From NCBI RefSeq assembly GCF_053078305.1, contig NZ_CP166879.1: 64,000 nucleotides of DNA; one strand, 5' to 3'. The notes under the pieces are model-generated. The model was not told the DNA's origin and searched no databases. It was given only the letters and a program-made list of their open reading frames with translations. Below are positions 45,392-63,437 of this stretch, piece by piece. The position numbers were made by a program, and so were the translations under genes. How positions within the stretch are numbered: position 1 is the first letter of the stretch; every line of letters begins with the position of its first letter.

Positions 45392-46603
45392 TTAATGATT
45401 ATCTTCAAACTCTTCCAAAACATATTGAGCATGAAATTGAATACAGGGCCAGGATGAAACTAAACCAGCGCGAGCAGTGGGTACTTCATTGGCGGTGATG
45501 GTGCAAAACCCTCTTCCTGGTGCCATTTCTTTTGCTATGGCTTCAACCAGCTCTGGATGATGACTAAGGACAAACTCTAACGGGGTGTAATCTAAGGGTA
45601 AATGACGTCCGTGGTCCCGAAATGCCAGATATGGAGCTGTTACTCCACGAAGCAAAATTTCTACAGGGAGCTGGGAAATGCGTTCTACCAATAAATTCAT
45701 ATGCCCAAGCCGCGCTATAGCCGCTGCAGCCCAACAGCGGTTACTCCCATCGGCTGTTTGATCGTCCAGCAGGCTTGTCAAAACAGCAATCACATCCTCA
45801 TTAGATTCATTAATTTCTGCAATCAATTTACAGGCATTCCATGCTTTGTCTGCATTTTTAACTTCTTGCAGCAAAGCAGGTAACGCCAGTTGACCTAGTT
45901 GTTTGAGTAATACTTCGTAATCGTCTAAAAGTAGACCCGGCGTTTTTCTGCCAAATATTTGCGCGATTAATTCTGCTATCCGTGCTTGTGAAGGCAAACT
46001 TTTCAGATATTGCCTCTCCTGTTCAGCCTGAGAATATTGAGGAAAATATTGCAATATTTGTTTTTTTGTCAGACTTAACGGGATCAACTCACCAACCTCA
46101 TCAGAGGCTATGGCGATAAAGTTTTTCTCCACTACCCCTTCACGTAAGAGTTGTAGTCGTGCTTTTTTGGCTGCTTTCGGAAAAACACGCAGGAATTGCG
46201 CGTACACCTCATACCAGGCATCAAATGTTCCATTAATAGCAGCGAACTCATGGCATTCATTAGCCCATTGTTCGCATTCTTCGTTAGGTTCATCATTGTA
46301 CTTATGGTCCGCAGGCGACCAGCGTAAGTCCTGTGTGAGTTTTTCTACGTTTTGTGTAAATCCATTTTTCTGATAAGCAGTAACAATAGAGGCCAGGCTT
46401 TCCTCAGTGCCAACTGCCAGACAAGGCCAGTCAATGATGTCCCCATCCCCATAAAAACAATGAAACATGGCACCATAGATATGTTGGCATGGGTGTTCCT
46501 GATGTATATGTTTAACGGAAGCTACCATGTAATTAATGGCAGCCGTTTCCATCCCTTTCCAGTCAAATTGTACTTGCTTCATAAAGCGGTCCGTGTAAGG
46601 CAA
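45392..46603 (-). CDS. Hypothetical protein; C-terminal region resembles HEAT/armadillo-type helical repeats
   Basis: Uninterrupted 403-aa frame convergent with narV; no recognisable catalytic motif. Confidence 0.6.
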   Translation of the reverse strand: MPYTDRFMKQVQFDWKGMETAAINYMVASVKHIHQEHPCQHIYGAMFHCFYGDGDIIDWPCLAVGTEESLASIVTAYQKNGFTQNVEKLTQDLRWSPADHKYNDEPNEECEQWANECHEFAAINGTFDAWYEVYAQFLRVFPKAAKKARLQLLREGVVEKNFIAIASDEVGELIPLSLTKKQILQYFPQYSQAEQERQYLKSLPSQARIAELIAQIFGRKTPGLLLDDYEVLLKQLGQLALPALLQEVKNADKAWNACKLIAEINESNEDVIAVLTSLLDDQTADGSNRCWAAAAIARLGHMNLLVERISQLPVEILLRGVTAPYLAFRDHGRHLPLDYTPLEFVLSHHPELVEAIAKEMAPGRGFCTITANEVPTARAGLVSSWPCIQFHAQYVLEEFEDNH

Positions 46604-47707: not shown

Positions 47708-48553
47708 TTATTTTCCCGCCTCCGGGTGCGTATCAAACGCCGCCATCACCAGCGCTAACTCATCCACAGTAAAGCCATGTTTCGCATCATCCACGCCCAG
47801 ACCAAACTGTTCTTGCATCACAGCATATAACGACGCCACATCCGGTAGATTTCGCTGCTCCACCGCGTGCTCATTTTCATAATGGGTAAAATGAAAATTG
47901 GTCAGTGTCAGCTTGCCGCCGTCCGGTAAATGGCGGCACATCAGCAAATGATGGCGAAAATGCGACTGCGGCCAGTGCGCCGACCAGAAATTGCCCATCA
48001 CATAATCGCTTTGTTGCTGCTCGCAGAGATCAAAACGGTACATCGACTGCCAGTGCTGATGATGATTAAACTGCAACACCCAATCATCACCCTCCTGTAA
48101 CAACCGATACTCTCCGTGTGGCGTGATCTGCACGAGATCGGGAACTAAACGAATCGGCGCGGTTAGCGTCTGTCCACCGAAACCGACATCAGCAATCCAT
48201 TTTTCCCCTTCCAGTTCCACCAACAACAAACGATGGGTGCGCGGCGGTAATGCTGGCGGATTTGATAACACTACGCGCCCTAACAAGCTGCGAACGTTAA
48301 ACCCCAGCTCGCGTAACACCCGCTCAAACACGCCATTCTGCTCAAAACAGTAACCACCACGACGGGCTGTCACCAGTTTCTCTTCCAGCGATTGATCATC
48401 AAGCTGTATTTCCCTCGGCAGCAAAACGTCGAGGTTTTCAAACGGAATGGTGCAATTGTGTTTCAGGTGCAATGCACGAAGCGTATCAATATTGACCGCA
48501 GCAGCTCCCGACCAGTTAATACGGGCAAAATAGTGATTCAGAATGGGCGTCAT
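47708..48553 (-). CDS. nhoA: Arylamine N-acetyltransferase / N-hydroxyarylamine O-acetyltransferase
   Basis: 281 aa from MTPILNHYFARINWSG; catalytic cysteine context RRGGYCFEQN. Confidence 0.93.
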   Translation of the reverse strand: MTPILNHYFARINWSGAAAVNIDTLRALHLKHNCTIPFENLDVLLPREIQLDDQSLEEKLVTARRGGYCFEQNGVFERVLRELGFNVRSLLGRVVLSNPPALPPRTHRLLLVELEGEKWIADVGFGGQTLTAPIRLVPDLVQITPHGEYRLLQEGDDWVLQFNHHQHWQSMYRFDLCEQQQSDYVMGNFWSAHWPQSHFRHHLLMCRHLPDGGKLTLTNFHFTHYENEHAVEQRNLPDVASLYAVMQEQFGLGVDDAKHGFTVDELALVMAAFDTHPEAGK

Positions 48554-48725
48554 CAGGCGTTTCCCTTAGTGGTTTTCTCAACTTATAACCTGGAATAGAC
48601 GCCGCACCGGCTATTTTGTGCGATCGCGGACATGCATCACGTTCGCAAATCGCCAATCCCGTTAATTTCGTTACTTATTGCGTTACGGACTACGCTTAAA
48701 AAAACCTTCTTCGCGAGGCGATACC

Positions 48726-49295
48726 ATGAGCCGATTCATCCCCATAGAATTACACCATGCCAGCCGTCTGTTAAATCATGGCCCAACTGTCTTGATCACC
48801 AGTTTCGATGAGCAATCCCAGCGGCGTAACATTATGGCTGCAGCCTGGTCAATGCCGGTGGAGTTTGAACCTCCACGCGTGGCGATTGTGGTAGATAAAT
48901 CGACATGGACCAGGGAGTTGATTGAACATAACGGTAAATTTGGCATCGTTATCCCGGGCGTTGCAGCAACTAACTGGACGTGGGCAGTGGGAAGTGTGTC
49001 GGGGCGTGAAGAAGATAAATTTAATTGCTATGGCATTCCGGTTGTGAGAGGCCCGGTATTTGGTTTGCCTCTGGTCGAGGAAAAATGTCTGGCGTGGATG
49101 GAGTGTCGCCTGCTACCTGCGACTTCTGCGCAAGAACAATACGACACACTGTTTGGCGAGGTAGTATCAGCAGCGGCAGACGCACGGGTATTTGTCGAAG
49201 GCCGCTGGCAGTTTGATGATGATAAGCTCAATACGTTGCATCATTTAGGTGCTGGCACGTTTGTTACTAGCGGCAAGCGTGTTACGGCGGGTTAA
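48726..49295 (+). CDS. yddH: Flavin reductase-like domain protein
   Basis: 189 aa from MSRFIPIELHHASRLLNHGPTVLITS. Confidence 0.88.
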   Translation: MSRFIPIELHHASRLLNHGPTVLITSFDEQSQRRNIMAAAWSMPVEFEPPRVAIVVDKSTWTRELIEHNGKFGIVIPGVAATNWTWAVGSVSGREEDKFNCYGIPVVRGPVFGLPLVEEKCLAWMECRLLPATSAQEQYDTLFGEVVSAAADARVFVEGRWQFDDDKLNTLHHLGAGTFVTSGKRVTAG

Positions 49296-49298
49296 GCA

Positions 49299-49526
49299 TT
49301 ACATGCTGTAACCAGGTTTCTTTATCAAAGCCTCCATTTGGGGCGCGATTTCGGCATCCCAGATAGCTTGCCATGATTCTGGTTGAATCTGCTGTAGAGA
49401 AATGCTTATCGAGCTATCTTTACTGTTCAGATGGCGAATAATAACGTCGGTAATATCTGCAGCAAGTGCTGCTTTTTGTTGTTCGTCCAGTTCACGCGGA
49501 AAACATTTAATGTCGATGTGCGGCAT
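49299..49526 (-). CDS. pptA: Tautomerase (4-oxalocrotonate tautomerase family)
   Basis: 75 aa from [28 protein letters not shown] with catalytic Pro at position 2; the ORF track extends it upstream. Confidence 0.9.
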
Positions 49527-49613
49527 GATTGTGCTCCTTTTGAAAGATGTCAGTAAAATTAACACACATTGTGAATGTCGTATGTCCGGTGATGCGTTTT
49601 TACGACAATAATG

Positions 49614-50594
49614 CCAGGGCAAGATTACGAAAGCCTTCTCCCCGCAAGGACTGACGCCAGGTAGTTTCTGTCCATGGCTGCTTTTCGCATCTTACGTCTT
49701 AACCCTGCCTTGAATACCTTATCATTCGTCAAAATATTAATAGCAATGTGCCGTATCCCTGAAAATAATTCTGCTGCATTTCCTCTTCTTATTTTGCAGT
49801 CGTCTTCATTCATTACCACGTCCAGACGCCAGTGCAGCTTATTCTCCACGTGCCAGTGGTTTCGGATTGCTGTGGCGAACTTCTCTGCGGTTAAATCAGC
49901 AGAACTGATATAATATCTGACCGTCATTTCTGGCTCTTTCTTTTGTTCTGCTATTATTGAGCGAAATGAGACTGCCATGCATAATTTCTTCAGCCCTTTC
50001 CATTCAAACGTGAAATCAATAAGTTCATCAGGGATATCGCAGACAATATGGAGACGGATTTTAATGACATGAATCGCTCCCCTGCGGCGACTCTTGTCAT
50101 AAGAGTGCCGGAGCGTTTTTCCATCAATTGCAATGACGTCTTTATCATCTGAAGAATGGCAGTCACGCATCCAGTTAATAAAGCACTCGTGAAATTTTGC
50201 AGGACTGATACAGGATACAACTCTGGCAATGGTATCGTGAACAGGAATACCATTTTCAAAATCACCATATTGCTTCAAAAAATCGAGATGTGTTTCCCCA
50301 AAATCCTCTATATCTTCCCAACCTTCTGCACCAGAAACAACGGCACAAATAATCAACAGTAGAATATCCGATAATTTATGTTCCACTTTCCAGGCTTGTC
50401 TGTAATCGGGGATAATAGAAATATGTTCCATCAATTTTTTAAGTTCCATTTTGTTTCCTTAATTATGTAAGGAGTATTTGATCATGTATAAGCAATAAAA
50501 AACAGCTTTAGGTAATGAGGAACATATCAATTTTTAAACATAAAATGCGAATTATTTAGTACAAAAAGTGTACTTCCGATGATCTTTCCCTGCC
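49614..50594 (-). mobile_element. ydcC: H-repeat (ISAs1-family) element copy 1, transposase with internal deletion
   Basis: 274-aa frame (49625..50449) aligns to both ends of the roughly 378-aa H-repeat transposase but lacks about 100 central residues (junction [17 protein letters not shown]). Confidence 0.75.
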
Positions 50595-50862
50595 ATTAAA
50601 TAATGTCTTATTTGACCTTGCCAACATACAACAAAATAATTGAAATATATTCAAAATTAATTTAAACATTCATCAGGCGTCCTTTTCTAAAAAACCTAAT
50701 CATTTAATGGTTAAATTACAATCAAACAAACAAAGTAAACTGGAATTATAGTTGTGGTGCACTTCACGATTTTAGCATTCTTGCTCCTACATTTATACTC
50801 TCTGCCGCGGAAATTTGTTCTCGAAACTTAACTAAACCCAATCAATCATCCTTGCCTTATCG

Positions 50863-51366
50863 TTACTTGAATTTATCAAGACATTTATCATTGCTGACAC
50901 TTTCAATATTTATATGATATACAGTTCCTGTGTTTGAGATATATACTTCCTTAAGCTTATCAGTTTTACTCTCATTATTATAAAAGTAGCCCCCGATAAT
51001 TTTATTCTTCTTTGATATATAAGTGACAGTGTCAGTATGAACTCCACCATTTATTGTCATAATGAATGAGGCATCCAAGTTCATCGTACTTTCCCCCTTA
51101 AAATATATTTTACCATTAGAAATCACTTTGGTCTCAGAAACACCGTTAGGCTCGTCATTACTAATTAATATAAGTAAATCTACCATTTCGGATTTTTTAT
51201 CTCTTTCTTTATAACCACCAATATCATCCAGGATATTATTTGACACTTTTCCACAAAGCATCACTGAGTAATTATTCAAATTTTTGAGTTGAGAGCACTT
51301 TGCCACAAAAGAGAATGAAATAAATATCAAACCTACCGAAATGATTATTGTTTTTTTAAAATTCAT
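50863..51366 (-). CDS. Exported small protein, candidate immunity protein for the upstream effector
   Basis: 167 aa with N-terminal signal peptide MNFKKTIIISVGLIFISFSFVAKCS; 4 bp downstream of the effector stop; about 27% GC. Confidence 0.55.
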   Translation of the reverse strand: MNFKKTIIISVGLIFISFSFVAKCSQLKNLNNYSVMLCGKVSNNILDDIGGYKERDKKSEMVDLLILISNDEPNGVSETKVISNGKIYFKGESTMNLDASFIMTINGGVHTDTVTYISKKNKIIGGYFYNNESKTDKLKEVYISNTGTVYHINIESVSNDKCLDKFK

Positions 51367-51370
51367 TGTT

Positions 51371-53449
51371 TTAAAGAATCCTTATGTAATTAAGTGGAGG
51401 TGTTATTTCATCATTCAATACATACCAAGAATGCTCAAATGCTGGCCAACGCACTAAATCGAAGCCATCTGCTGCTGGGTTTATTCGCCGTGTAACTTCT
51501 CTGGCATCTGACAAACTACATCCTTTATCCGCCCAATAATTAACGCCTAAACTACCACTAGGTGTCAATCGATGGCTTACCATTATGTATTTTTGCTTAC
51601 TTGCCCAAAAGTATCCCCCGGCATCGCAAGAAAAATAGGCATTTTCAACTGGGAGTTGGTTATTGGGTTCTGTAGTAAAAAAATCATCATCTGACGGATT
51701 TCTATACTTTCCATAATTTCTATAATTCTCACGACCAGTTAGATGTATGGTACCTCTGCCTTTAAATCTTGCACCATCACCAACAACATTATTTCCAAGC
51801 TTAAGTCCCTGTTCTGTTCCTGGCTCATACATATCAAAATAACTCGAATCACCATTCTCTATAAAAGACGCAAATCTGCCTGTTTCTCTCGCCATCTGAC
51901 CGAAATAATGCGCAATCCGCAATGGGGTTGTAATTAAGTACTTCCTTAGTGACTTTGACAGTTCATTTTTCAACCCTGCAGGTCTTATCACCTCACCACT
52001 GCTATTTTGTCCTTGGCTAGTAATCCGCTCAATTAGAGTGTCTTTACTTAATGGTCTTGTAAGTTCTGATGTCATGGGATAAGCATTTTGATAACGTCTT
52101 ACCACACTTATAATATCATTTTCTCCTAACCACCCACATTTCCTGAAATGTGCAATAAACTGCCTGGGATCAAAATGCCATACACGCCTGGCAGGTAACG
52201 GATTATCTACCAAACAAAGCGCCTTACAGTGTTCTATCAGCAAATCCAGGTCAGGCTCTGTCATCGGCTTACTCAATACGTCATTGGGTGATTTCAGCCA
52301 CTCAAACCGTGATTCCACGGTGGCGCTGTCCCATTCTAGCGGAAAATGACAAATCATCCGACTTAGGTCATTGCGGGTTGTACACAGGATTGTTGGTGAA
52401 TTGCACTGGCTGTTGGTGTCCGCATCATCGTTCACCAGTTTCCACCCTGTCCAGTGTGGAAAATCACCGTCGCTGTAAACCCTGATATCTCTCGCCCCTA
52501 AGTTAACAACGCCTTTACCCTGTGGCGTATTGATTGTTCGCCACAGCGGCGCATCCGCCGGGACTAATTCTTCATATTCTGTATTAACAACCCGACCAAA
52601 ACGCAGCATCTCATAACCGGCACTTGGGCTTTTCGGATAGAGTTGCAGCGCGTAGGAATAGAGATTGTATTCATAATCCTTACCATCAGCATTAATCAAG
52701 GGAGAACCTACTTCAGTATAGGTATCACTCAGCACTTCATGCTGCTGACGCGTCACCATCGTACAATTGCCTTTATCAAAACTCATTGTGACATACAATG
52801 GCACGCTGGTTCTTTGTACCGGACTGTTGTTCGCAAGCGAGTTTTCTTCCGGCATGTCCCCATAAATCGGTGTTCCGGCAGGGAGATAAAAATGACTATC
52901 ACCGTAAACCACATCAGTTCGTCCATCTTTATTCAGGTCTGTTTCCGGTGATATTCTTCCTGTGATTTTCTGAATGTTTTCATCATCACAAAAAATCTGA
53001 AAATGAAAGGCGTTCTGTCCGTCCACCATCCCTGCTGCACCAACCGGTTCTTTCCGGTATAGCGTGTTTCCCGGCTGCACATTACTGTCAATGCTTCTCA
53101 GGTGCATATATAATGAGTAATAGACGATTTTACCCTCTTCTCCACTACCGATTTCTGTTTCATGTTTTATCAGAACATAGCCTTTATCCGTAACTCCGTT
53201 ATAATTTAACGGAGGAACTGTATTTTCCGCTGGTTCTGGCTGGCGTATTGAAATAACCTTCCCATCGGCAATACACCTAACAGTCTCTGACAGATTGCCG
53301 TTCAAATGAACTCCACCATGCCAAGAACGACCGCTATTCATTGGGAAATTTCTTTCTGGATCAACAGACATCATTCTGTTTACCCAGTCAGAGTCTTTTT
53401 CAGTGTCTATATGCGCATGCAATATTGGAGGGCTGATTATCATTATCAA
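51371..53449 (-). CDS. Candidate T6SS peptidoglycan-hydrolase effector: M23-like domain plus GH19/lysozyme-like C-terminal domain
   Basis: M23-like block HGGVHL…ADGKVIS…YYSLYMHLRS…GAAGMVDGQNAFHFQIF; GH19-like block YFGQMARETG…GDGARFKGRGTIHLTGRENYRNYG; first gene downstream of vgrG. Confidence 0.6.
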   Translation of the reverse strand: MIMIISPPILHAHIDTEKDSDWVNRMMSVDPERNFPMNSGRSWHGGVHLNGNLSETVRCIADGKVISIRQPEPAENTVPPLNYNGVTDKGYVLIKHETEIGSGEEGKIVYYSLYMHLRSIDSNVQPGNTLYRKEPVGAAGMVDGQNAFHFQIFCDDENIQKITGRISPETDLNKDGRTDVVYGDSHFYLPAGTPIYGDMPEENSLANNSPVQRTSVPLYVTMSFDKGNCTMVTRQQHEVLSDTYTEVGSPLINADGKDYEYNLYSYALQLYPKSPSAGYEMLRFGRVVNTEYEELVPADAPLWRTINTPQGKGVVNLGARDIRVYSDGDFPHWTGWKLVNDDADTNSQCNSPTILCTTRNDLSRMICHFPLEWDSATVESRFEWLKSPNDVLSKPMTEPDLDLLIEHCKALCLVDNPLPARRVWHFDPRQFIAHFRKCGWLGENDIISVVRRYQNAYPMTSELTRPLSKDTLIERITSQGQNSSGEVIRPAGLKNELSKSLRKYLITTPLRIAHYFGQMARETGRFASFIENGDSSYFDMYEPGTEQGLKLGNNVVGDGARFKGRGTIHLTGRENYRNYGKYRNPSDDDFFTTEPNNQLPVENAYFSCDAGGYFWASKQKYIMVSHRLTPSGSLGVNYWADKGCSLSDAREVTRRINPAADGFDLVRWPAFEHSWYVLNDEITPPLNYIRIL

Positions 53450-53590
53450 TAGTCCTTATTAAGCTTATAAAACATGTAACGAGTATGAATTATTCATTCA
53501 CAGAGCATCTCTGCTTAGAAAGCAGAAAATCACAGTATTATTGTATTATTACTACCGTCATCCGTTATCTTTATCTGAATGATTATCCCA

Positions 53591-55737
53591 CTACGAGAAC
53601 ATGAACTTCACTCTGGTCTCATCATTACCGATATCATCATCAGTATTACTATCCGTATCATTAGTGACTAAAGTGTTCAGGACAGTGGGTTGCAGTGTCG
53701 GTACCGGTGTCCCCGGACTCCCCCCACCATTAAGATTTATCTTCGGCCCCACTATATCCACGCCGCCCGGCTGAATAACGATAAACGAGCCACCCACCTT
53801 CAGGCTTATCCGGCTGCTGCTCTCCAGCACGATATCCCCGTCCACCTTTATCCCCAGCGCGCCACTCACCTTCCTCGCCAGGTCCCCCTTCACCACCAGG
53901 CTGTGTTTCCCCTCCACCAGACTGATATGGTTCCCCGTCGTCTTATGCTCCTGCTTCCCTTCCACCGTCACTTTACGGTCGTTTCTGACGTACAGACCGT
54001 CATCGTGACTCACGCTCACCGTCCGGTCATTCGTCACCTTCAGAGTCTGGTCATTACGTACTGTGATACGCCGGTCGTTCGCCACCGTGATACTCTGGTC
54101 GTGGCCCCCTCTTTTTTTGTACCGACCTGAACCGTCTGGCCCTTCACCACCGTTATCTTCTGGTCGTTACCAATGGTTTCCGTGTGGTCATGCTTCACGT
54201 CCGTCGTCCGGTCGTTGAGCACTTCCGTATCCATGTTCTTCTGCGCATGGATATACACCTGCTCATTACTGGTGGCGTCTTCAAACCGCAGCTCGTTAAA
54301 TCCGCTTCCTTTATAGGTTTTTGACCGGATGGTCATCTGCGTCTTCGTTCCCGGCAGGTCGCCCGGCGAACGGTTGTCCTCATGGTACGTCCGCCCCATG
54401 ATTATCGGCTGGTCCGGGTCGCCGTTCAGGAAGTCCACTATCACCTCCTGACCCACCCGCGGTATCGCCAGATTACCGAACCCCGGCCCCGCCCACGCCT
54501 GCGATACACGCACCCAGCATGAACTCGCCTCCGTCATCCCGTGATAACGGTCCCAGTGGAACTTCACCCGTACCCGGCCATGTTCATCGCAGAAGATTTC
54601 CTCTCCCGCAGGCCCGGTGACAATGGTGCTCTGTGGCCCGTCCACCTTCGGTTTGCTTTGCAGCCGTGGACGCCACGTCCGGTCTGCCGGTATCACCTCT
54701 AACTGATTTCCCAGTGTGGTTCCTCTCCCCTGGCTGCCGTGCAACGCCTGCGGCTGGCTTCCTGACAGTATGCTCTGTACCACCTGCCATTCACGGTTCA
54801 GCATCTTCTGCGGATGCCCCGTCAGCGTAAACCGCGTTCCCGGCCACAGCTTCGGTGAATTACTCTGCCCTGTGGCCTTTTCCGCATCACTGCGCAGGCT
54901 GTCCATCTGATACAGCGTGAAATCCTTGCCGTGCTGCTCATCCTTGAACCTTCCCGGATAATCAAATATCTCGTACTGCGCGTGCTGTCCGTTCAGCCTC
55001 TCACCCTGCTGTTCGTATATCCCCGGCCAGTCCGGCACCTTAAACGTGTAATCCTGACTCTGCACCGACGACGGGCGGACATGCGCCTCATAACGGAACA
55101 TACTGAGACACTCCGTCTCCGCTCCTGCCGATGTGTCCGGGTTAAACGGAAGCTCTCCCGCCTGTGACAGCCCCGCCACATCGTCGCACAGCGTCAGCTT
55201 CTGCTCCGGGCTGTCCGCCGCAAACCGCTCAAAGAAGAAAATCCCCTCCTCCGCCCACAGCCGGGACAGAAACGCCAGGTCGCTCTCTCCGTACTGGACA
55301 CAGAACTCCCGCGCCGGATGGTCCTCATAAAACAGCGGCGTCCACTCCGTGACGCCGTTCTCGTTCAGTAACGTGGCCGATATCGTCCGGATATCCTGCT
55401 GCTGAAAAATACGAAAGTTCTGCCGCAGCCCGCACCGCCATAACGGCGGCTCAATACGCAGGTGATAACGCATCTGCCAGCCGTTGTTCTCCTGCATGCC
55501 AAAGCCCGCCACCACGCCAGTGACATAACGCAGCGGAATGACGCCCTGCCAGATGGTCAGCGTTGCGTTCTTCTCCAGCAGCATCTCCGCCGTCTGCATA
55601 AAAGAGTCGCTGGCAACATCCACACTCATCACAAACGGATAAGACTGGTTCTGGATTAACCTGAAATTCACCACTGCAAAGGTGTCCGGCTCCTGGCCGT
55701 CAACCTCCAGCGTAAAGCGAAGACCTTTTAAGGACAT
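53591..55737 (-). pseudogene. vgrG: vgrG (T6SS spike) copy 1, frameshifted
   Basis: ORFs 54040..55737 and 53591..54085 are consecutive VgrG segments in different frames; shift maps to the C5 run at 54105-54109 (N-frame KKEGATT, C-frame GGHDQSITVANDRR; copy 2 reads KKEGGHDQ). Confidence 0.75.
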
Positions 55738-55755
55738 AAATACCTCTCTGGTATA

Positions 55756-56040
55756 TCAGCCTATATTTACCGTGCCGCCACCAATAACCACGCCGCCGCA
55801 GTCAATGGCATCACCGGTTCTGGCGGCGGGCAGGCCGTCAATAAAGACGGTTGAAGAGCCTCTGGCGATTTTTCGGGGATGAGGTGGATGCTTCGGTTTA
55901 GCATGCGGCGTCGGCGGATCTCCCTGACGGGCTGCGGGGAGACCATCGATAAAAACGGTGGATGACCCGGCGGTGATGACGGTCTCGTAATAACCGTCGT
56001 GCTGAGTGCCTTTGTCGGTGAGTTTGGCTGCTAAAGGCAT
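55756..56040 (-). CDS. PAAR-domain protein (T6SS spike tip), copy 1
   Basis: 94 aa with two GLPAAR(Q/T)GD motifs; 18 bp upstream of vgrG copy 1. Confidence 0.85.
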   Translation of the reverse strand: MPLAAKLTDKGTQHDGYYETVITAGSSTVFIDGLPAARQGDPPTPHAKPKHPPHPRKIARGSSTVFIDGLPAARTGDAIDCGGVVIGGGTVNIG

Positions 56041-56395
56041 AATTCCTCCTGTTCAGAATTTCTACAGCAGCAGGTTTCAAAAATCCGGAGAAATATTCAA
56101 CGAAACATTAATCACTTCACCGGATATTCTGACACGTACCTTCACTAGTCTATTTAAGTAATACAAATTGTTGGCGTGTAATACCCCATTCTCCTTTCAT
56201 TATCTTTGCCTTTAAAACAGAAAGTTCTTGAAATATATATTTAAGGAAAAAACCACGATAAACACCACAAGGATAATATAAATCACCAAGTTATCGAAAA
56301 TTTAAAAAATCACGCGTCAGATCTGATAAAAAATAGGCTATCACATGTAACTCCTGGGCGATCTCGCAAAAATTAAATTATAAAAATACATGACG

Positions 56396-57376
56396 CAGGG
56401 CAAGATTACGAAAACCCGCTCCCCGCAAGGACTGACGTCAGGTAGTTTCTGTCCATGGCTGCTTTTCGCATCTTACGTCTTAACCCTGCCCTGGATACCT
56501 TATCATTCATCAAAATATTAATAGCAATGTGCCGTATCCCTGAAAATAATTCTGCTGCGTTTCCTCTTCTTATTTTGCAGTCGTCTTCATTCATTACCAC
56601 GCCCAGACGCCAGTGCAGCTTATTCTCCACGTACCAGTGGTTTCGGATTGCTGTGGCGAACTTCTCTGCGGTTAAATCAGCAGAACTGATATAATATCTG
56701 ACCGTCATTTTGGGATTTTTCTTTTGTTCTGCTATTATTGAGCGAAATGAGACTGCCATGCATAATTTCTTCAGCCCTTTCCATTCAAACGTGAAATCAA
56801 TAAGTTCATCAGGGATATCGCAGACAATATGGAGACGGATTTTAATGACATGAATCACTCCCCTGCGGCGACTCTTGTCATAAGAGTGCCGGAGCGTTTT
56901 TCCATCAATTGCAATGACGTCTTTATCATCTGAAGAATGGCAGTCACGCATCCAGTTAATAAAGCACTCGTGAAATTTTGCAGGACTGATACAGGATACA
57001 ACACTGGCAATGATATCGTGAACAGGAATACCATTTTCAAAATCACCATATCACTTCAAAACATCGGGATGTGTTTCCCCAAAATCCTCTATATCTCCCA
57101 GTCTTATGCACCAGAAATAACGGCGCAAATAGTTAACAGATAGAATATCTGGCAATTTATGTTCCACTTTCCAGGCTTGCCTGTAATCGGGGATAACAGA
57201 AATATGTTCCATCAATTTTTTAAGTTCCATTTTGTTCTCCTTAATTATGTAAGGGGTATTTGATCATGTGTAAGCAATAAAAAACAGCTTCAGGCAATAA
57301 GGAATATCTCAATTTTCAAACATAAAATGTGAATTATTTAGTACAAAAAGTGTACTTCTGATGATCTTTCCCTGCC
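56396..57376 (-). mobile_element. H-repeat (ISAs1-family) element copy 2, degraded
   Basis: About 93-95% identical to copy 1 over about 980 bp with the same internal deletion junction ([17 protein letters not shown]), plus extra frameshifts splitting the frame (ORFs 56406..56951 and 56855..57049). Confidence 0.75.
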
Positions 57377-57453
57377 CTTGTTTATTAGGTATATACCATA
57401 AATACTGAGTATTTTATTGTGCTATTTGTTTATTAAAAATTTGCGAGCAATAA

Positions 57454-57933
57454 TTAAAGATTGCCATCTTCATTGCCGACGAAATAAATATCAAATGAAC
57501 ACTCCAATCCAAGATTAGCCATTATTTTCATCTGCTCAGGCCATAAAGTTGGCCCACCGTGCCAATTCAATGATCTCCAGGTACAGTCAATACCCATTGA
57601 AATATTTTCTAATGCTTGCAATTTTGCAATATTTGATGATTTAGGTCCAAGTTTGTGAAGTAGCCAATCCAGATGTTCTCGAATATCTTTCGAGTTCACT
57701 AGATTTTCTGACGAGAGCATCCAATATGAATTTTTTGCATATCTTTTCTTTCCCGATAGAGTAATAATTTCATCTCCTTTTATATTAATTGATGTTGGCT
57801 CAAGTTCTAAGTGAATACTTATTTCATTAGGGTGAGTATTACCTGTGTAAATCAAGAGGCTAGCATAGCACTCATCACAACTTGGATATTCATGAGATAT
57901 CGGGGTAAGCCTTGATTGTATATTCTTAATCAT
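57454..57933 (-). CDS. Candidate immunity protein for the PAAR-like toxin
   Basis: 159 aa, no signal peptide; start overlaps the toxin stop by 4 bp (ATGA). Confidence 0.5.
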   Translation of the reverse strand: MIKNIQSRLTPISHEYPSCDECYASLLIYTGNTHPNEISIHLELEPTSINIKGDEIITLSGKKRYAKNSYWMLSSENLVNSKDIREHLDWLLHKLGPKSSNIAKLQALENISMGIDCTWRSLNWHGGPTLWPEQMKIMANLGLECSFDIYFVGNEDGNL

Positions 57934-59063
57934 AAATAATCCTCTATGTTTCCTAAAATATTTCCTGAGTCATCAATATAATCACCATTATCAAGTATTC
58001 GACCATGGTGATCACCTCGTAAGCGTAAATCTTTTTTCAACTTTTCTAAAGCTTTCCCCCATTCTCTCCTGTTAATATTTTTACCAAAAAATTCATTTAA
58101 CTCCCTGGCAGTTCTTGCCTCAAGAGTATTACCTCCAGTTTGTAATACTCTCGGAACTCTTCCCGCAGCGCCAACGCTTGGAGGAACAGGAATAGGCAAT
58201 CCATTTGCATCCAGCACAATTTTAGCACCGCTCCTCCCCATTCTGCCAACCGATTTTATTGCAAACTTCGCTGAAAACTTGACCAAACCTTTCACCAGTG
58301 CTCCAACCCCGGTCATAAGTTCCAGCCATGGCTCAACCTCCATCGCCATTGCTTGGGTTTCATTGGCAGGTTTCAACAATGGCTCTCTAGGATCAATAGT
58401 TTCCATTACCTCCCTGTTGGTCTCATTCGCCCGCTCCATAATTTGGGTATCCATCCCCAACCCTCTCGCCAGAGCAATATTACTTTCCATTTGGGCAATG
58501 TCATTTTGCATCTGACCTTTGGCAATCAATGCACCCAACATATACCAGCCATTAATAAATGCCTTGCCTAATCCTATCATTGCATCTGCTTCTTGCTTTT
58601 TGGACTCAAGCTCAAACTCTTGCTGTTGTCTTTGCAGTTCCAGATACCTGGCCCAAAGCGATGATTCTTTAACAGGTATTATCTGATTTGGCAGGTTTGT
58701 CTGGGTATACAGTTTTCCAACAGTATTATCATTATTCATGGCAACCAGCGAAAGATTCCTGGCTACCGGCTTTCCCTTGCACTTTATATGATCCACGCCT
58801 GTCAGTATCCGGCAGTCACCGCTGCCCAGACTGGTGCCAGAACTGACACCTTTCCCGGCATTACTTCGTGTACCTGCAATAATACAGTCCACGGTCAGTA
58901 CTGGATTGCCCCGTGCCCTGACATTGCTGATATAAATTTTCTCATGTGTCAGGTCCTGAAAGCTGTCAAACGGCACTATCGCATCACCAACCTTGCAGAC
59001 ATCAGGCGCAATACATATCGCAACGTACTTCGATTCACGACAACCAATATGATTTTCAGCCAT
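57930..59063 (-). CDS. Candidate T6SS effector: N-terminal PAAR-like (DUF4150-type) domain with C-terminal toxin domain of unassigned family
   Basis: N-terminus CRESKYVAICIAPDVCKVGDAIVPFDSF fits the PDVC…P.P(F/Y) PAAR-like pattern; C-terminal 100 aa basic with a DHHG…N…N segment. Confidence 0.55.
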   Translation of the reverse strand: MAENHIGCRESKYVAICIAPDVCKVGDAIVPFDSFQDLTHEKIYISNVRARGNPVLTVDCIIAGTRSNAGKGVSSGTSLGSGDCRILTGVDHIKCKGKPVARNLSLVAMNNDNTVGKLYTQTNLPNQIIPVKESSLWARYLELQRQQQEFELESKKQEADAMIGLGKAFINGWYMLGALIAKGQMQNDIAQMESNIALARGLGMDTQIMERANETNREVMETIDPREPLLKPANETQAMAMEVEPWLELMTGVGALVKGLVKFSAKFAIKSVGRMGRSGAKIVLDANGLPIPVPPSVGAAGRVPRVLQTGGNTLEARTARELNEFFGKNINRREWGKALEKLKKDLRLRGDHHGRILDNGDYIDDSGNILGNIEDYL

Positions 59064-59997
59064 GAGGTCCCCTCTGCTCCGTCGTCAAAACAATACGTTG
59101 TGGAAGAGAATCCACGGGGAGCGTTAAGCGCCAGAGTAGTGTTAGTTGCTCATCGTCTGTGTGGATGGTCAGTGTGTCAGCCAACAATGGGCGCAGTTCT
59201 ACGTTTTTATCAGAGCGGTAAAACAAATACGCCAATAGTCTAATATCTGGAAGGAAACAAATTTGTTCCATTTTAGAAGGTAATAGGCCGTTCAATATAA
59301 TTTTTTCATTGCCAATTAAATAACCATCGTATTGTTGTTCTGGTGGAGAATAATTCATGAATGCAAAATCGAATTCATCTGGATAAAAAGGTTGAACAGT
59401 CTTTTGCCACTGTTCTGTAAAACCTCTGGCATAGCGCAATCGTGAAGGCCAGCTACGGCAAATAGCTCCTGGTGAGGCAGATAACTGTGGAGCTGGACAG
59501 GGCGATTTATCGCCAAGCGTTATCAGGGAGGGAATAACAATGCCTACAGGATTAAATTCACTGGCTGACGCCAGTTCATGGCGTAACAGTACCCGATCAG
59601 TTAATTCAGGTTCGCTAAGTTGCCAGCGGTTAGATATATATTGCCATTGGCAAGGGCCACATATATCAAATTGGCGCTGAAGATTACCAACCTGTAAACT
59701 GGCCTGCCATCGAGTGGTTTCCCCGGTGGCATGCCATGCGTGTCCATTTAATAAAACATCTGCCCTGACTTTTCTGCAAACCAAATCGGTTGCTGTTTTA
59801 AGACTGCTGCTTTCCGGTTCGCCGTACCAGGAGTCGGTCATCAGTGGCAGTCGCTGCTCATCCGCAATCAGACAGAGACCGCCGCTATATGAAAAATCAA
59901 ATGTCTGATTAACTACCACTACTGTGAATAACTCACCATAATATCCCACTTTTTCGAACTGAAAGTGAGGTAAACCAGTTTCATTTTCAATATTCAT
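59056..59997 (-). CDS. Candidate DUF2169-type adaptor protein
   Basis: 313 aa between vgrG and a PAAR-like effector, overlapping the effector start by 8 bp; family assignment is by context and size. Confidence 0.5.
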   Translation of the reverse strand: MNIENETGLPHFQFEKVGYYGELFTVVVVNQTFDFSYSGGLCLIADEQRLPLMTDSWYGEPESSSLKTATDLVCRKVRADVLLNGHAWHATGETTRWQASLQVGNLQRQFDICGPCQWQYISNRWQLSEPELTDRVLLRHELASASEFNPVGIVIPSLITLGDKSPCPAPQLSASPGAICRSWPSRLRYARGFTEQWQKTVQPFYPDEFDFAFMNYSPPEQQYDGYLIGNEKIILNGLLPSKMEQICFLPDIRLLAYLFYRSDKNVELRPLLADTLTIHTDDEQLTLLWRLTLPVDSLPQRIVLTTEQRGPHG

Positions 59998-60012
59998 GTT
60001 AATTTCTCCAGA

Positions 60013-61977
60013 TTAATCCAGATCAATATCTGCGCCGAAAATATTGATTTTATCTTTTCCTTCAATCTGGATACTTTTACCATTGAGAATGATAGTACCG
60101 TCCTTATTCATTTTCAGTAAGCATTCACCGACTTTAATGGTGAGGCTGTTGGTAACTGTCAGGCTGTAATCTTCTCCAACTTTAATATCCTGGGATTTCA
60201 CGACTTCTTCGGTATCTTTTCCTATTATCTTACTGATTTGATCGTTCCCTACATCCTTGTGACGATCGTGGGTAACATCCAGCCGCTGATCGTTTTGTAC
60301 CGTAATGGTCTGGTCATTCGCCACTGTCACTTTCTGGTCATGACCACCTTCCTTTTTGCTCCCCACATTCACCGTCTGGCCCTTCACCACCGTTATCTTC
60401 TGGTCGTTACCAATGGTTTCCGTGTGGTCATGCTTCACGTCCGTCGTCCGGTCATTCAGCACTTCCGTATCCATGTTCTTCTGCGCGTGAATATAGACCT
60501 GTTCCTTATCTGTGGCGTCCTCAAAGCGCAGCTCGTTAAATCCGCTTCCTTTATAGGTCTTCGACCGGATGGTCATTTGTGTCTTCGTTCCCGGCAGGTC
60601 GCCCGGCGAACGGTTGTCTTCATGGTATGTGCGTCCCGTCACAATGGGCTGGTCCGGGTCGCCGTTCAGAAAGTCCACTATCACCTCCTGACCCACACGC
60701 GGTATCGCCAGATTACCGAACCCCGGCCCCGCCCACGCCTGCGATACACGCACCCAGCATGAACTCGCCTCCGTCATCCCGTGATAACGGTCCCAGTGGA
60801 ACTTCACCCGTACCCGGCCATGTTCATCGCAGAAGATTTCCTCTCCCGCAGGCCCGGTGACAATGGCGCTCTGTGGCCCGTCCACCTTCGGTTTGCTTTG
60901 CAGCCGTGGACGCCACGTCCGGTCTGCCGGTATCACCTCTAACTGATTTCCCAGCGTGGTTCCTCTCCCCTGGCTGCCGTGCAGCGCCTGCGGCTGGCTT
61001 CCTGACAGTATGCTCTGTACCACCTGCCATTCACGGTTCAGCATCTTCTGCGGATGCCCCGTCAGCGTAAACCGCGTTCCCGGCCACAGCTTCGGTGAAT
61101 TACTCTGCCCTGTGGCCTTTTCCGCATCACTGCGCAGGCTCTCCATCTGGTACAGCGTGAAATCCTTGCCGTGCTGCTCGTCCTTGAACCTTCCCGGATA
61201 ATCAAATATCTCGTACTGCTCCAGCTGTCCGTTCAGGTTCTCACCCTGCTGCTCATACATCCCCGGCCAGTCCGGCACCTTAAACGTGTAATCCTGGCTC
61301 TGCACCGACGACGGGCGGACATGCGCCTCATAACGGAACATACTGACACACTCCGTCTCCGCTCCTGCCGATGTATCCGGGTTAAACGGAAGCTCCCCCG
61401 CCTGTGACAGCCCCGCCACATCGTCGCACAGCGTCAGCTTCTGCTCCGGGCTGTCCGCCGCAAACCGCTCAAAGAAGAAAATTCCCTCCTCCGCCCACAG
61501 CCGCGCCAGAAACGCCAGGTCCGACTCCCCGTACTGCACACAGAACTCCCGCGCCGGATGGTCCTCATAATACAGCGGCGTCCACTCCGTGACGCCGTTC
61601 TCGTTCAGTAACGTGGCCGATATCGTCCGGATATCCTGCTGCTGGAAGATACGGAAGTTCTGCCGCAGCCCGCACCGCCATAACGGCGGCTCAATACGCA
61701 GGTGATAACGCATCTGCCAGCCGTTATTCTCCTGCATGCCAAAGCCCGCCACCACGCCGGTGACATAACGCAGCGGGATGACGCCCTGCCAGATGGTCAG
61801 CGTCGCCTTCTTCTCCAGCAGCATCTCCGCCGTCTGCATAAAAGAGTCGCTGGCAACATCCACACTCATCACAAACGGATATGACTGGTTCTGGATTAAC
61901 CTGAAATTCACCACTGCAAAGGTGTCCGGCTCCTGGCCGTCAACCTCCAGCGTAAAGCGCAGACCTTTTAAGGACAT
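60013..61977 (-). CDS. vgrG: VgrG (T6SS spike protein), copy 2, intact
   Basis: 654 aa; N-terminal about 545 aa near-identical to copy 1, followed by gp5-like repeats (VTVANDQTITVQNDQRLDVTHD…). Confidence 0.88.
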   Translation of the reverse strand: MSLKGLRFTLEVDGQEPDTFAVVNFRLIQNQSYPFVMSVDVASDSFMQTAEMLLEKKATLTIWQGVIPLRYVTGVVAGFGMQENNGWQMRYHLRIEPPLWRCGLRQNFRIFQQQDIRTISATLLNENGVTEWTPLYYEDHPAREFCVQYGESDLAFLARLWAEEGIFFFERFAADSPEQKLTLCDDVAGLSQAGELPFNPDTSAGAETECVSMFRYEAHVRPSSVQSQDYTFKVPDWPGMYEQQGENLNGQLEQYEIFDYPGRFKDEQHGKDFTLYQMESLRSDAEKATGQSNSPKLWPGTRFTLTGHPQKMLNREWQVVQSILSGSQPQALHGSQGRGTTLGNQLEVIPADRTWRPRLQSKPKVDGPQSAIVTGPAGEEIFCDEHGRVRVKFHWDRYHGMTEASSCWVRVSQAWAGPGFGNLAIPRVGQEVIVDFLNGDPDQPIVTGRTYHEDNRSPGDLPGTKTQMTIRSKTYKGSGFNELRFEDATDKEQVYIHAQKNMDTEVLNDRTTDVKHDHTETIGNDQKITVVKGQTVNVGSKKEGGHDQKVTVANDQTITVQNDQRLDVTHDRHKDVGNDQISKIIGKDTEEVVKSQDIKVGEDYSLTVTNSLTIKVGECLLKMNKDGTIILNGKSIQIEGKDKINIFGADIDLD

Positions 61978-61995
61978 AAATACCTCTCAGACATA

Positions 61996-62280
61996 TCAGC
62001 CTATATTTACCGTACCGCCACCAATGACCACACCACCACAGTCGATGGCATCACCGGTTCTGGCGGCGGGCAGGCCGTCAATAAAGACGGTTGACGAGCC
62101 TCTGGCGATTTTACGGGGATGAGGGGGATGCTTCGGTTTAGCATGCGGCGTCAGCGGATCTCCCTGGCGGGCTGCGGGGAGACCATCGATAAAAACGGTG
62201 GATGACCCGGCGGTGATGACGGTCTCGTAATAACCGTCGTGCTGGGTGCCTTTGTCGGTGAGTTTGGCTGCTAAAGGCAT
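61996..62280 (-). CDS. PAAR-domain protein, copy 2
   Basis: 94 aa, differs from copy 1 by a single residue; 18 bp upstream of vgrG copy 2. Confidence 0.85.
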   Translation of the reverse strand: MPLAAKLTDKGTQHDGYYETVITAGSSTVFIDGLPAARQGDPLTPHAKPKHPPHPRKIARGSSTVFIDGLPAARTGDAIDCGGVVIGGGTVNIG

Positions 62281-62420
62281 AATTCCTCCTGTTAAGAATT
62301 TCTACAGCAGCAGGTTTCAAAAATCCGGAGAAATATTCAACGAAATATTAATCACTTCACCGGATATTCTGATACGTACCTTCACTGGTCTATTTAAGTA
62401 ATACAAATTGTTGGCGTGTA

Positions 62421-62584
62421 TTAAGTTCCATTTTGTTCTCCTTAATTATGTAAGGAGTATTTGATCATGTATAAGCAATAAAAACAGCTTCAGGAAATAA
62501 GGAATATCGCAATTTTTAAACATAAAATGCGAATCGTTCAATACAAAAAAGCAGCGTTGCGTAATCTTTCCCTGATTAAATACG
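62421..62584 (-). repeat. Orphan 5'-end remnant of an H-repeat element
   Basis: About 160 bp matching the 5' terminus and transposase start region of copies 1 and 2 (ttaagttccattttgtt…ctttccctg); no downstream body. Confidence 0.65.
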
Positions 62585-62819
62585 CTACCGCCCTACTCTG
62601 ATGACATGATCTGCACTGCACTATCATATCGACATGTTTCTCTACATGCGAAGAGATGTTTTATTTTCGGATTATATTAAATTGATATTTCATATAAAAA
62701 ACGAAATTACATCAATCATATAAATAATTGTATCAACTTTAATTACTATTCATAGCAAACAAATGGATATCCAGTTAACTACGCCAGTGATTCATTAACA
62801 TTAACCTCCGGCATTATTG

Positions 62820-63437
62820 TTAAATAATGACATTCCTTTTTAATACTTCTTGTAATTTCGGTAACTGACATACAGCATCAGCAATCGCACTGATATTTGT
62901 GGCATTATCCTGAAACCATTCATGCCCAGGCCCCCATGTGCGCATAGTGCAAAGATAACAGTCCACCAGCGTTAGTTGCTCACCAAACGCATAAGGTTCA
63001 GCGGTCAATTGTGAATTCAGCCAGATATAAAGCGATTTACGATATTCAATAACATTCTTCTTTAACTGTTCGGGTGCGTCAGGAGCCCAACGCTCAGGGT
63101 AATCGGCGAAAGTGAATGTTGGATAGACATTAGCAACCAGCCAGACCAATAGCCGTTGAAACTGCTGACGTTCGGCGCGCCCAACCGGTGGCGCAAGGTC
63201 CGGGCGACGATCGAGAACCATCAATGCAATCGCCGCTGTCTCCGTCATAATCTCGTCATTTTCCAGCGCCAGTGTCGGAATCTGACACAACGGGTTCAGG
63301 GTTTTCAATAACTCGCGTGAAGTTCCCTCGTGGTCAAAACCACTGACATCAACGAACTGATAAGGAATATCAGCCAGTGTTAGCATCAGCTCACTGATTG
63401 TAGAGCCCCATCCGGGTACGCCATACACCTTAATCAT
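62820..63437 (-). CDS. yncG: Glutathione S-transferase homologue
   Basis: 205 aa from MIKVYGVPGWGSTISELMLTLADIPYQFVDV. Confidence 0.85.
   Translation of the reverse strand: MIKVYGVPGWGSTISELMLTLADIPYQFVDVSGFDHEGTSRELLKTLNPLCQIPTLALENDEIMTETAAIALMVLDRRPDLAPPVGRAERQQFQRLLVWLVANVYPTFTFADYPERWAPDAPEQLKKNVIEYRKSLYIWLNSQLTAEPYAFGEQLTLVDCYLCTMRTWGPGHEWFQDNATNISAIADAVCQLPKLQEVLKRNVII

Follow-up and report, generated by a model that had tools for sequence, protein, structure and literature searches.

In agrobacterial vgrG loci the end of the COG3501/TIGR03361 domain is a recombination hot spot, and exchange there displaces the C-terminal coding part of vgrG and all downstream genes; the polymorphic VgrG C-terminus co-varies with DUF2169 or DUF4123 adaptor, DUF4150 effector and immunity genes (Wu et al., mBio 2021, PMC8546570). 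For the auxiliary clusters of the Vibrio cholerae type VI secretion system (T6SS), two reports describe conserved upstream genes that provide the homology for effector-immunity replacement, leading to strain-specific sets (PMC5361080, PMC4557670). The Rhs loci of Escherichia coli and Salmonella undergo C-terminal displacement and contain orphan tips, with the insertion sequence (IS) H-rpt (ISAs1) at their ends (PMC2935791, PMC3967940). We describe here a locus in 64,000 nt of E. coli DNA (NCBI RefSeq GCF_053078305.1, contig NZ_CP166879.1), the whole of which we call the window. Between yncG and pptA it carries two tandem auxiliary T6SS modules, each made up of PAAR, vgrG, cargo genes and a defective ISAs1. 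Our literature search on the locus (vgrG with ISAs1, yncG or RhsE/H-rpt) found no recombination analysis of the E. coli yncG-pptA interval, and only the description of region GR11 ‘yncG..yddH’ of the avian pathogenic E. coli (APEC) strain BEN2908, which is variable and has two tssI/vgrG copies outside the main T6SS cluster (PMC12928451).

We think it likely (probability about 0.85) that the conserved front end of these modules and ISAs1 act as portable homology arms for module deletion, conversion and the joining of new cargo. The repeats in the window are such front ends, made up of a leader, PAAR and the gp27/gp5-like core of vgrG, with the VgrG C-terminus and everything downstream being cargo-specific. 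Homologous recombination in the front end or in ISAs1, presumably of the RecA type, would delete a module, convert one copy by another or join a front end to a new cargo. The alleles compared below show that the front end and the ISAs1 remnant are natural sites of crossover and conversion and that the same front end stands before many cargos.

Genes were called using an open reading frame (ORF) list, NCBIfam profiles with curated cutoffs, Pfam, comparison with PDB and PHROG, and the Prokaryotic Genome Annotation Pipeline (PGAP) annotation of the same locus in A16, a genome 99.9% identical to the window there. Populations were surveyed in 5,426 complete E. coli genomes. Repeats were phased with the 111 sites that distinguish window copies A and B, and ISAs1 copies with 47 diagnostic sites between type 1 and type 2. 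All array genes lie on the minus strand. Starting from yncG, the order is a 160-bp ISAs1 5′ fragment, a leader, PAAR-B, vgrG-B, genes for a DUF2169 protein, a PAAR-like effector and a DUF4279 protein (cargo B), ISAs1 copy 2, a 212-bp spacer, a second leader, PAAR-A, vgrG-A, genes for an M23/endolysin-like protein and a 167-aa protein (cargo A), ISAs1 copy 1 and pptA. Both modules have the composition of auxiliary (orphan) vgrG modules, in which an adaptor, an effector or both, together with an immunity candidate, come after vgrG, remote from the tss core; no tss core genes were found in the syntenic 50 kb of A16.

Self-BLAST of the window yielded direct repeats at 54047-56183 (copy A) and 60286-62423 (copy B), 2138 bp long in the same orientation, with 94.76% identity (111 mismatches, one gap) and a period of 6240 bp. 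Such a match cannot be chance. A preliminary description, made from the window alone, had placed the repeats at 54100-56180 and 60340-62420, within about 55 bp of the BLAST limits. It called them near-identical; they are real and in the same orientation, but at 94.8% identity they are diverged, though pairwise alignment keeps them above the floor of about 90% that the description had set for its claim. The ‘6 kb of cargo’ that it saw between them shrinks to 4.1 kb (56184-60285), of which about 1.2 kb is defective ISAs1 and the 212-bp spacer. Copy A contains a 143-bp leader (56041-56183), PAAR-A and the 5′ part of vgrG-A; copy B contains a 140-bp leader, PAAR-B and vgrG-B from its first codon as far as about codon 563. 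PAAR-A (55756..56040, 94 aa) differs from PAAR-B at one residue (P43L) and at 11 synonymous codons. The shared part of vgrG extends from codon 1 to about codon 535-563, with approximately 97% protein identity between vgrG-A and vgrG-B.

The homology ends within vgrG just past the conserved core, at the vgrG C-terminal region where the preliminary description had put a sharp boundary, but as a gradient and not as a knife edge. Identity is 100% at 54192-54143, 76% at 54142-54093 and 62% at 54093-54043, after which the copies are unalignable. The fading takes about 85 bp, corresponding to VgrG residues ~536-563, and the TIGR03361 core match stops at residue 519. The 5′ boundary of copy B is sharp: at 62421/62420 the repeat abuts the ISAs1 5′ fragment, ATGGAACTTAA being joined to TACACGCC (62431-62413). 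On the 5′ side of copy A, 212 bp lead to the 3′ end of ISAs1 copy 2.

Identity is unevenly distributed along the repeat. Measured in 50-bp steps it is 86-100% over most of the length, fully identical stretches alternating with steps at 76-88%, and at either end it falls to background. The mismatches cluster (index of dispersion 2.26, p ~1e-4) and leave perfectly identical blocks of 169 and 156 bp, the longest of which (54458..54626, partner 60698-60866) contains the crossover of the natural deletion product described below. Codons that differ only synonymously number 54, against 15 with nonsynonymous differences; because the differences are mostly synonymous, both copies must have diverged under purifying selection. 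The clumping and the perfect blocks fit old paralogues that have been patched repeatedly by gene conversion. A recent tandem duplication was considered and rejected, the copies being 5% diverged with unrelated cargos.

The reading frame of VgrG is intact in copy B and broken in copy A. The vgrG-A pseudogene (53591..55737) has lost 1 nt from a G6 run (C5 on the plus strand, 54105-54109), which splits it into ORFs of 565 and 164 aa; neither this frameshift nor the pairing of ISAs1 copies described below figured in the preliminary description. The G5 allele is found in the window, A16, 1504D004, ES5 and AHM8C160RI, and PGAP labels vgrG-A ‘frameshifted’ in the latter four; ECNB21-M121, 23CRST031, 33F4 and A30 have the intact G6 allele. 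Because all G5 alleles have the same 3′ haplotype, the frameshift is a single inherited 1-nt deletion, and the alleles compared give no sign of phase variation at the G run. Slippage by −1 at an in-register A_AAA_AAA heptamer (T7 at 54112-54118) would give full-length VgrG-A. Programmed −1 frameshifting is nevertheless unneeded as an explanation, since intact alleles differ by G6 versus G5 alone, in the adjacent run.

Natural recombinants were found in the survey. The yncG-pptA locus of 1504D004 (L002) and ES5 (L007) is 6236 bp shorter than that of the window and has a single repeat, in which all but one of the first 57 diagnostic sites are B-type and the last 54 are A-type. The switch from B to A falls between sites 54627 and 54457, that is, in the longest perfect block (169 bp). 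When the window is deleted in silico between its repeats, the product differs from 1504D004 by six single-nucleotide polymorphisms (SNPs) and one 4-bp indel over approximately 10 kb. The derived G5 frameshift of copy A is also present in both genomes. That the repeats would permit deletion, as the preliminary description proposed, is thus borne out by two single-module B-to-A chimeras that match the predicted 6240-bp deletion product.

Conversion between copies can be followed from the window to A16. The two are identical over 48390-56856 and differ at 12 sites in 56857-63324. Five of the 12 sites are clustered at 62245..62387, where the window is B-type and A16 is A-type; this cluster is gene conversion, with a tract of at least 143 bp. 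Separately, at nhoA (47906-48389) the window and A16 differ at 56 sites within 480 bp and are then identical for 8.4 kb, which marks a sharp homologous-recombination breakpoint just outside the array.

The whole 14.2-kb B-A array was found in four of the 5,426 genomes, at 99.8-99.9% identity, and in two more with IS2 inserted in vgrG-A. Cargo A is present in 19 genomes and cargo B in 120. At other loci the first ~1.9 kb of the repeat is a patchwork of A and B types regardless of cargo; linkage to cargo type is confined to the last 84-240 bp. The same conserved front end precedes at least five different cargos, and the locus thus belongs with the recombination-driven modular vgrG loci of agrobacteria, in which a conserved 5′ vgrG meets varied C-termini and cargos (PMC8546570). 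Array content and order vary likewise. B is followed by A in the window, A16, PS10-3 and ETEC6335; A stands alone in other strains, including 1504D004 and ES5; A may be followed by a C39/M35 module, or B by an M35 module; in A30 B′ (another DUF2169 module) is followed by an orphan vgrG-A C-terminal fragment and M23 effector; and in one array a pyocin-domain module precedes B. These comparisons uphold the earlier suggestion of recombinational tip replacement, the 5′ part being mosaic independently of cargo with at least five cargos behind it, and the population comparison then suggested as a check supports recombination through its natural recombinants. Of the cassette swapping or loss that had been anticipated, loss and varied module content among strains are seen; the observed deletion product is decaying and represents no functional swap.

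Two further loci show other rearrangements. At 5795-6687 of the A30 locus (L004), a 105-bp ISAs1 5′ fragment adjoins the orphan vgrG-A C-terminal fragment (788 bp), after which come an intact M23 effector and immunity candidate, all downstream of a complete DUF2169-type module; the arrangement resembles an orphan Rhs tip. The 23CRST031 locus (L008, 1826-3560) is a single-module A with intact vgrG, in which a truncated gene for the immunity candidate and a partial ISAs1 directly border an IS1. This looks like IS1-associated loss of a downstream C39/M35 module such as 33F4 and ECNB21-M121 have, and if so would be a third route to module loss.

The second direct-repeat pair found by self-BLAST consists of ISAs1 (H-rpt) copy 1 at 49615..50597 and copy 2 at 56396..57379 (985 bp, 95.2% identity). 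Copy 1 has a 274-aa ORF that matches NF033564 (E 8.5e-73) at profile positions 1-102 and 210-314 only. Copy 2, a ydcC-type element also matched by NF033564, carries a frameshift and a stop (PGAP, ‘frameshifted; internal stop’) in addition to an internal 312-bp deletion. Neither encodes a full-length ISAs1 transposase; both are defective remnants of the family, and both have the identical 312-bp internal deletion relative to K-12 ydcC (breakpoints 50061/50062 and 56842/56843), which implies that they spread with the module array and not by independent transposition. A third piece, the ~160-bp ISAs1/H-rpt 5′-end fragment at 62421..62582, includes the first 11 nt of the transposase ORF and is joined directly to the PAAR-B leader; it matches 50439-50602 (86%) and 57220-57349 (91.5%). 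The fusion creates a 13-codon ORF (MELNTRQQFVLLK; window 62413-62473) and brings a sigma-70-like match (62473-62445) upstream of PAAR-B, so the first module might be transcribed from an IS promoter. Upstream of copy B there is no counterpart of the 212-bp spacer between ISAs1 copy 2 and the copy A leader (56184..56395). Elsewhere, second-position PAAR genes (arrays L005 and L006) have a similar gap, with 366-369 bp between the ISAs1 ORF and PAAR. The ISAs1 that separates cargo B from pptA in ET350 is type 1 at the 10 pptA-proximal sites and almost wholly type 2 at the other 37, the chimeric pattern that would be expected of exchange within the IS repeat.

The array may have started as a module between two ISAs1 copies that was amplified by unequal exchange. 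Cargo would have been replaced later, with the vgrG core and the IS as arms, and a deletion in the first IS would then have produced the 62421/62420 junction. We rejected another source for the array, unequal crossover in which the upstream IS fragment paired with the downstream IS; it would leave just 160 bp of IS between the modules, where a whole defective IS and the 212-bp spacer are observed. We tentatively prefer a history in which two full IS copies on the flanks recombined and the first of them later suffered a deletion.

Short-read assembly classically goes wrong at repeats of 2 kb, and the structure might be an artefact of that kind, a repeat falsely duplicated or collapsed; the copies, however, differ at 111 sites and flank different genes, and the same architecture recurs in four independent complete genomes and in two more with the IS2 insertion, so we regard an assembly artefact as negligible. 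It could also be argued that the similarity reflects purifying selection on separately acquired paralogous PAAR and vgrG genes, and that the repeats have no role in rearrangement. The 5% divergence, the mostly synonymous differences and the unrelated cargos would suit such a history. It fails on the perfect nucleotide blocks of 156-169 bp, on the over-dispersed mismatches and on the conserved 143-bp non-coding leader, and it is contradicted by the A16 conversion tract and by a clean chimera that matches the predicted deletion product; we consider it very improbable.

Several points weigh against our reading of the repeats. The SNP pattern is symmetric, being the same whether a deletion occurred or a 6.24-kb circle integrated into an ancestor with one module. 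A single-module chimera of the 1504D004 type might then be ancestral, and the window array a gain, still by recombination at the repeat, made by one crossover in the vgrG core with a circle carrying the vgrG 3′ part, cargo B, ISAs1, spacer, PAAR and vgrG 5′ part. As the exact reverse of deletion this predicts the same SNP phasing, and arrays of varied content and order show gain of modules alongside loss. It would need circle formation, transfer and integration, and a donor with the complementary hybrid repeat, but the required A-5′/B-3′ hybrid was found in none of the loci compared. Because a single intramolecular step is simpler than circle integration, we infer that the 1504D004/ES5 locus arose by deletion, and we hold the gain to be possible but unlikely. 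Portable homology arms thus remain our preferred reading, against which the following also count. The crossover interval, the 4-bp indel and three SNPs are common to 1504D004 and ES5, and because these private variants are held in common the two genomes probably record a single event and not recurrence. The vgrG of the deletion product is still frameshifted, and the ES5 effector is frameshifted too; since the chimeric vgrG keeps its frameshift, the product is a decaying locus, and the documented deletion looks like decay and not like an adaptive or functional swap. Mismatch repair should lower recombination between copies that are 5% diverged. Promoter and terminator scans of both leaders gave counts equal to the shuffled expectation.

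In module B, PAAR-B (61996..62280) is a 94-aa T6SS PAAR protein (NF033420, E 5.5e-47, 157.8 bits, cutoff 124), and vgrG-B (60013..61977) encodes 654 aa that match TIGR03361 over residues 8-519 (E 1.4e-180, 601.3 bits, cutoff 186) and also TIGR01646 (417.9 bits, cutoff 121.8). Next come a DUF2169-family T6SS accessory (adaptor) protein of 313 aa (59056..59997), named from PGAP at the A16 locus, and a 377-aa PAAR-like (DUF4150) effector (57930..59063) with a Tox-PAAR-like domain (PF13665, E 2e-10, residues 16-116) and an uncharacterised C-terminal region; over its first 252 residues it is similar to 8qjc, a T6SS Rhs effector (E 1.4e-15). The 159-aa DUF4279 protein (57454..57933; PGAP in A16) is presumed to be the cargo B immunity protein from its position directly after the effector. 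NCBIfam and PHROG gave no match for the DUF2169 protein, the DUF4279 protein or the C-terminus of the PAAR-like effector.

The effector of cargo A (51371..53449, ~690 aa; PGAP, ‘M23 family metallopeptidase’) has an M23-like N-terminal domain (PF01551, E 3.3e-4, residues 44-157) and an endolysin/GH19-like C-terminal domain, seen in matches to PDB 9ms7, an endolysin (E 7e-10, residues 497-616), and to PHROG endolysin families (E 5e-21). It is predicted to be a peptidoglycan hydrolase. The 167-aa protein after it (50863..51366) is small and signal-bearing, with a hydrophobic N-terminus in its translation; it has no family match in NCBIfam or PHROG and, from its position, is presumed to be the periplasmic immunity protein of cargo A.

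The locus is the E. coli yncG-pptA interval, with yncG on one side and pptA, yddH and nhoA on the other. The upstream flank yncG (62820..63437, minus strand), of the glutathione S-transferase family, is annotated in A16, 1504D004 and K-12, and homology to K-12 resumes at 62822; the downstream flank pptA, from annotation, is at 49299..49526 on the minus strand. The same interval of K-12 contains yncH, the rhsE pseudogene, ydcD, yncI and the H-repeat transposase gene ydcC. Because rhsE, ydcD and H-rpt genes occupy it there, the window locus is the E. coli RhsE site. A16 has a complete T6SS core cluster at tRNA-Asp (aspV), whose vgrG is 90% identical to vgrG-B in DNA and 86.7% in protein, and the modules presumably load onto the aspV-encoded T6SS. 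That cluster also ends in an ISAs1/H-rpt copy (42058-43350 of the A16 cluster locus L014), 93.5-94.8% identical to those of the window, so that in this species ISAs1 recurs at the ends of T6SS cargo regions. Farther from the array, a 403-aa ORF at 45392-46603 adjoins yddE and has an ET350 counterpart annotated as DUF4303; it is absent in A16, where narI adjoins yddE, a small presence/absence polymorphism near the array. At about 34000-38000 of the window the GC content falls to 0.35-0.40; by A16 synteny this part should contain the gene for espR1, a leucine-rich-repeat type III secretion system effector, and a partial paralogue.

We also entertain, as a doubtful extension, the idea that the array is a cassette store in which only the first position is well expressed and downstream modules, including frameshifted ones, are silent reserves. 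Expression from the first position would come from the fusion to the ISAs1 5′ end with its sigma-70-like match. If it were true, recombination or conversion in the 2.1-kb front end would move reserves into the expressed position or repair them, and clonal populations would have standing heterogeneity in T6SS armament, analogous to pilE/pilS antigenic variation or orphan Rhs activation. Whatever the fate of that idea, the locus is a natural example of variation in the E. coli T6SS toxin set, cleanly resolved to single nucleotides: the historical RhsE site displays one crossover, one conversion tract and one chimeric IS. The locus also connects vgrG modules with the classical Rhs/H-rpt ‘rearrangement hot spot’. 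It should help in reading how strains differ in immunity and interbacterial killing, the LF82, NC101 and APEC lineages with cargo B being examples, and it calls for caution in the assembly and annotation of yncG-pptA.

The mechanism is not new, having been published for Agrobacterium, Vibrio and Rhs loci, and the present locus is a solid, ordinary example. It has the conserved VgrG core of the agrobacterial loci and the same boundary, the TIGR03361 match ending at residue 519 and homology fading over ~536-563. Whereas the agrobacterial loci are dispersed, those described here are adjacent direct repeats in one array, and their conserved arm includes the PAAR gene and leader upstream of vgrG, with defective ISAs1 as a second arm. 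Events that were inferred from trees in agrobacteria are resolved here, as crossover and conversion, between near-clonal genomes.

In the Vibrio model, incoming effectors are said to displace residents and to leave orphan immunity arrays. Unlike the Vibrio clusters, the present locus stacks whole modules in tandem, each with its own PAAR and vgrG and with an IS remnant between them.

BEN2908 GR11 is the same interval as ours; that paper notes the two vgrG copies only, without repeat structure, cargo, ISAs1 junctions or recombination. With Rhs elements the locus shares the K-12 RhsE chromosomal site, ydcC-type H-rpt, and the plan of a conserved core with a variable C-terminal tip, toxin and immunity. 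Orphan Rhs tips are reportedly activated by recombination with the main gene, and the A30 vgrG C-terminal fragment and effector, downstream of a full module, are like such a tip. Between yncG and pptA, ORFs, profiles and annotation revealed no large ORF of the Rhs core type, with its YD repeats and PxxxxDPxGL boundary. Because an Rhs/YD-repeat core gene is lacking and the conserved element is instead PAAR with the VgrG core, the locus is, on its gene content, positionally equivalent to an Rhs element yet not one.

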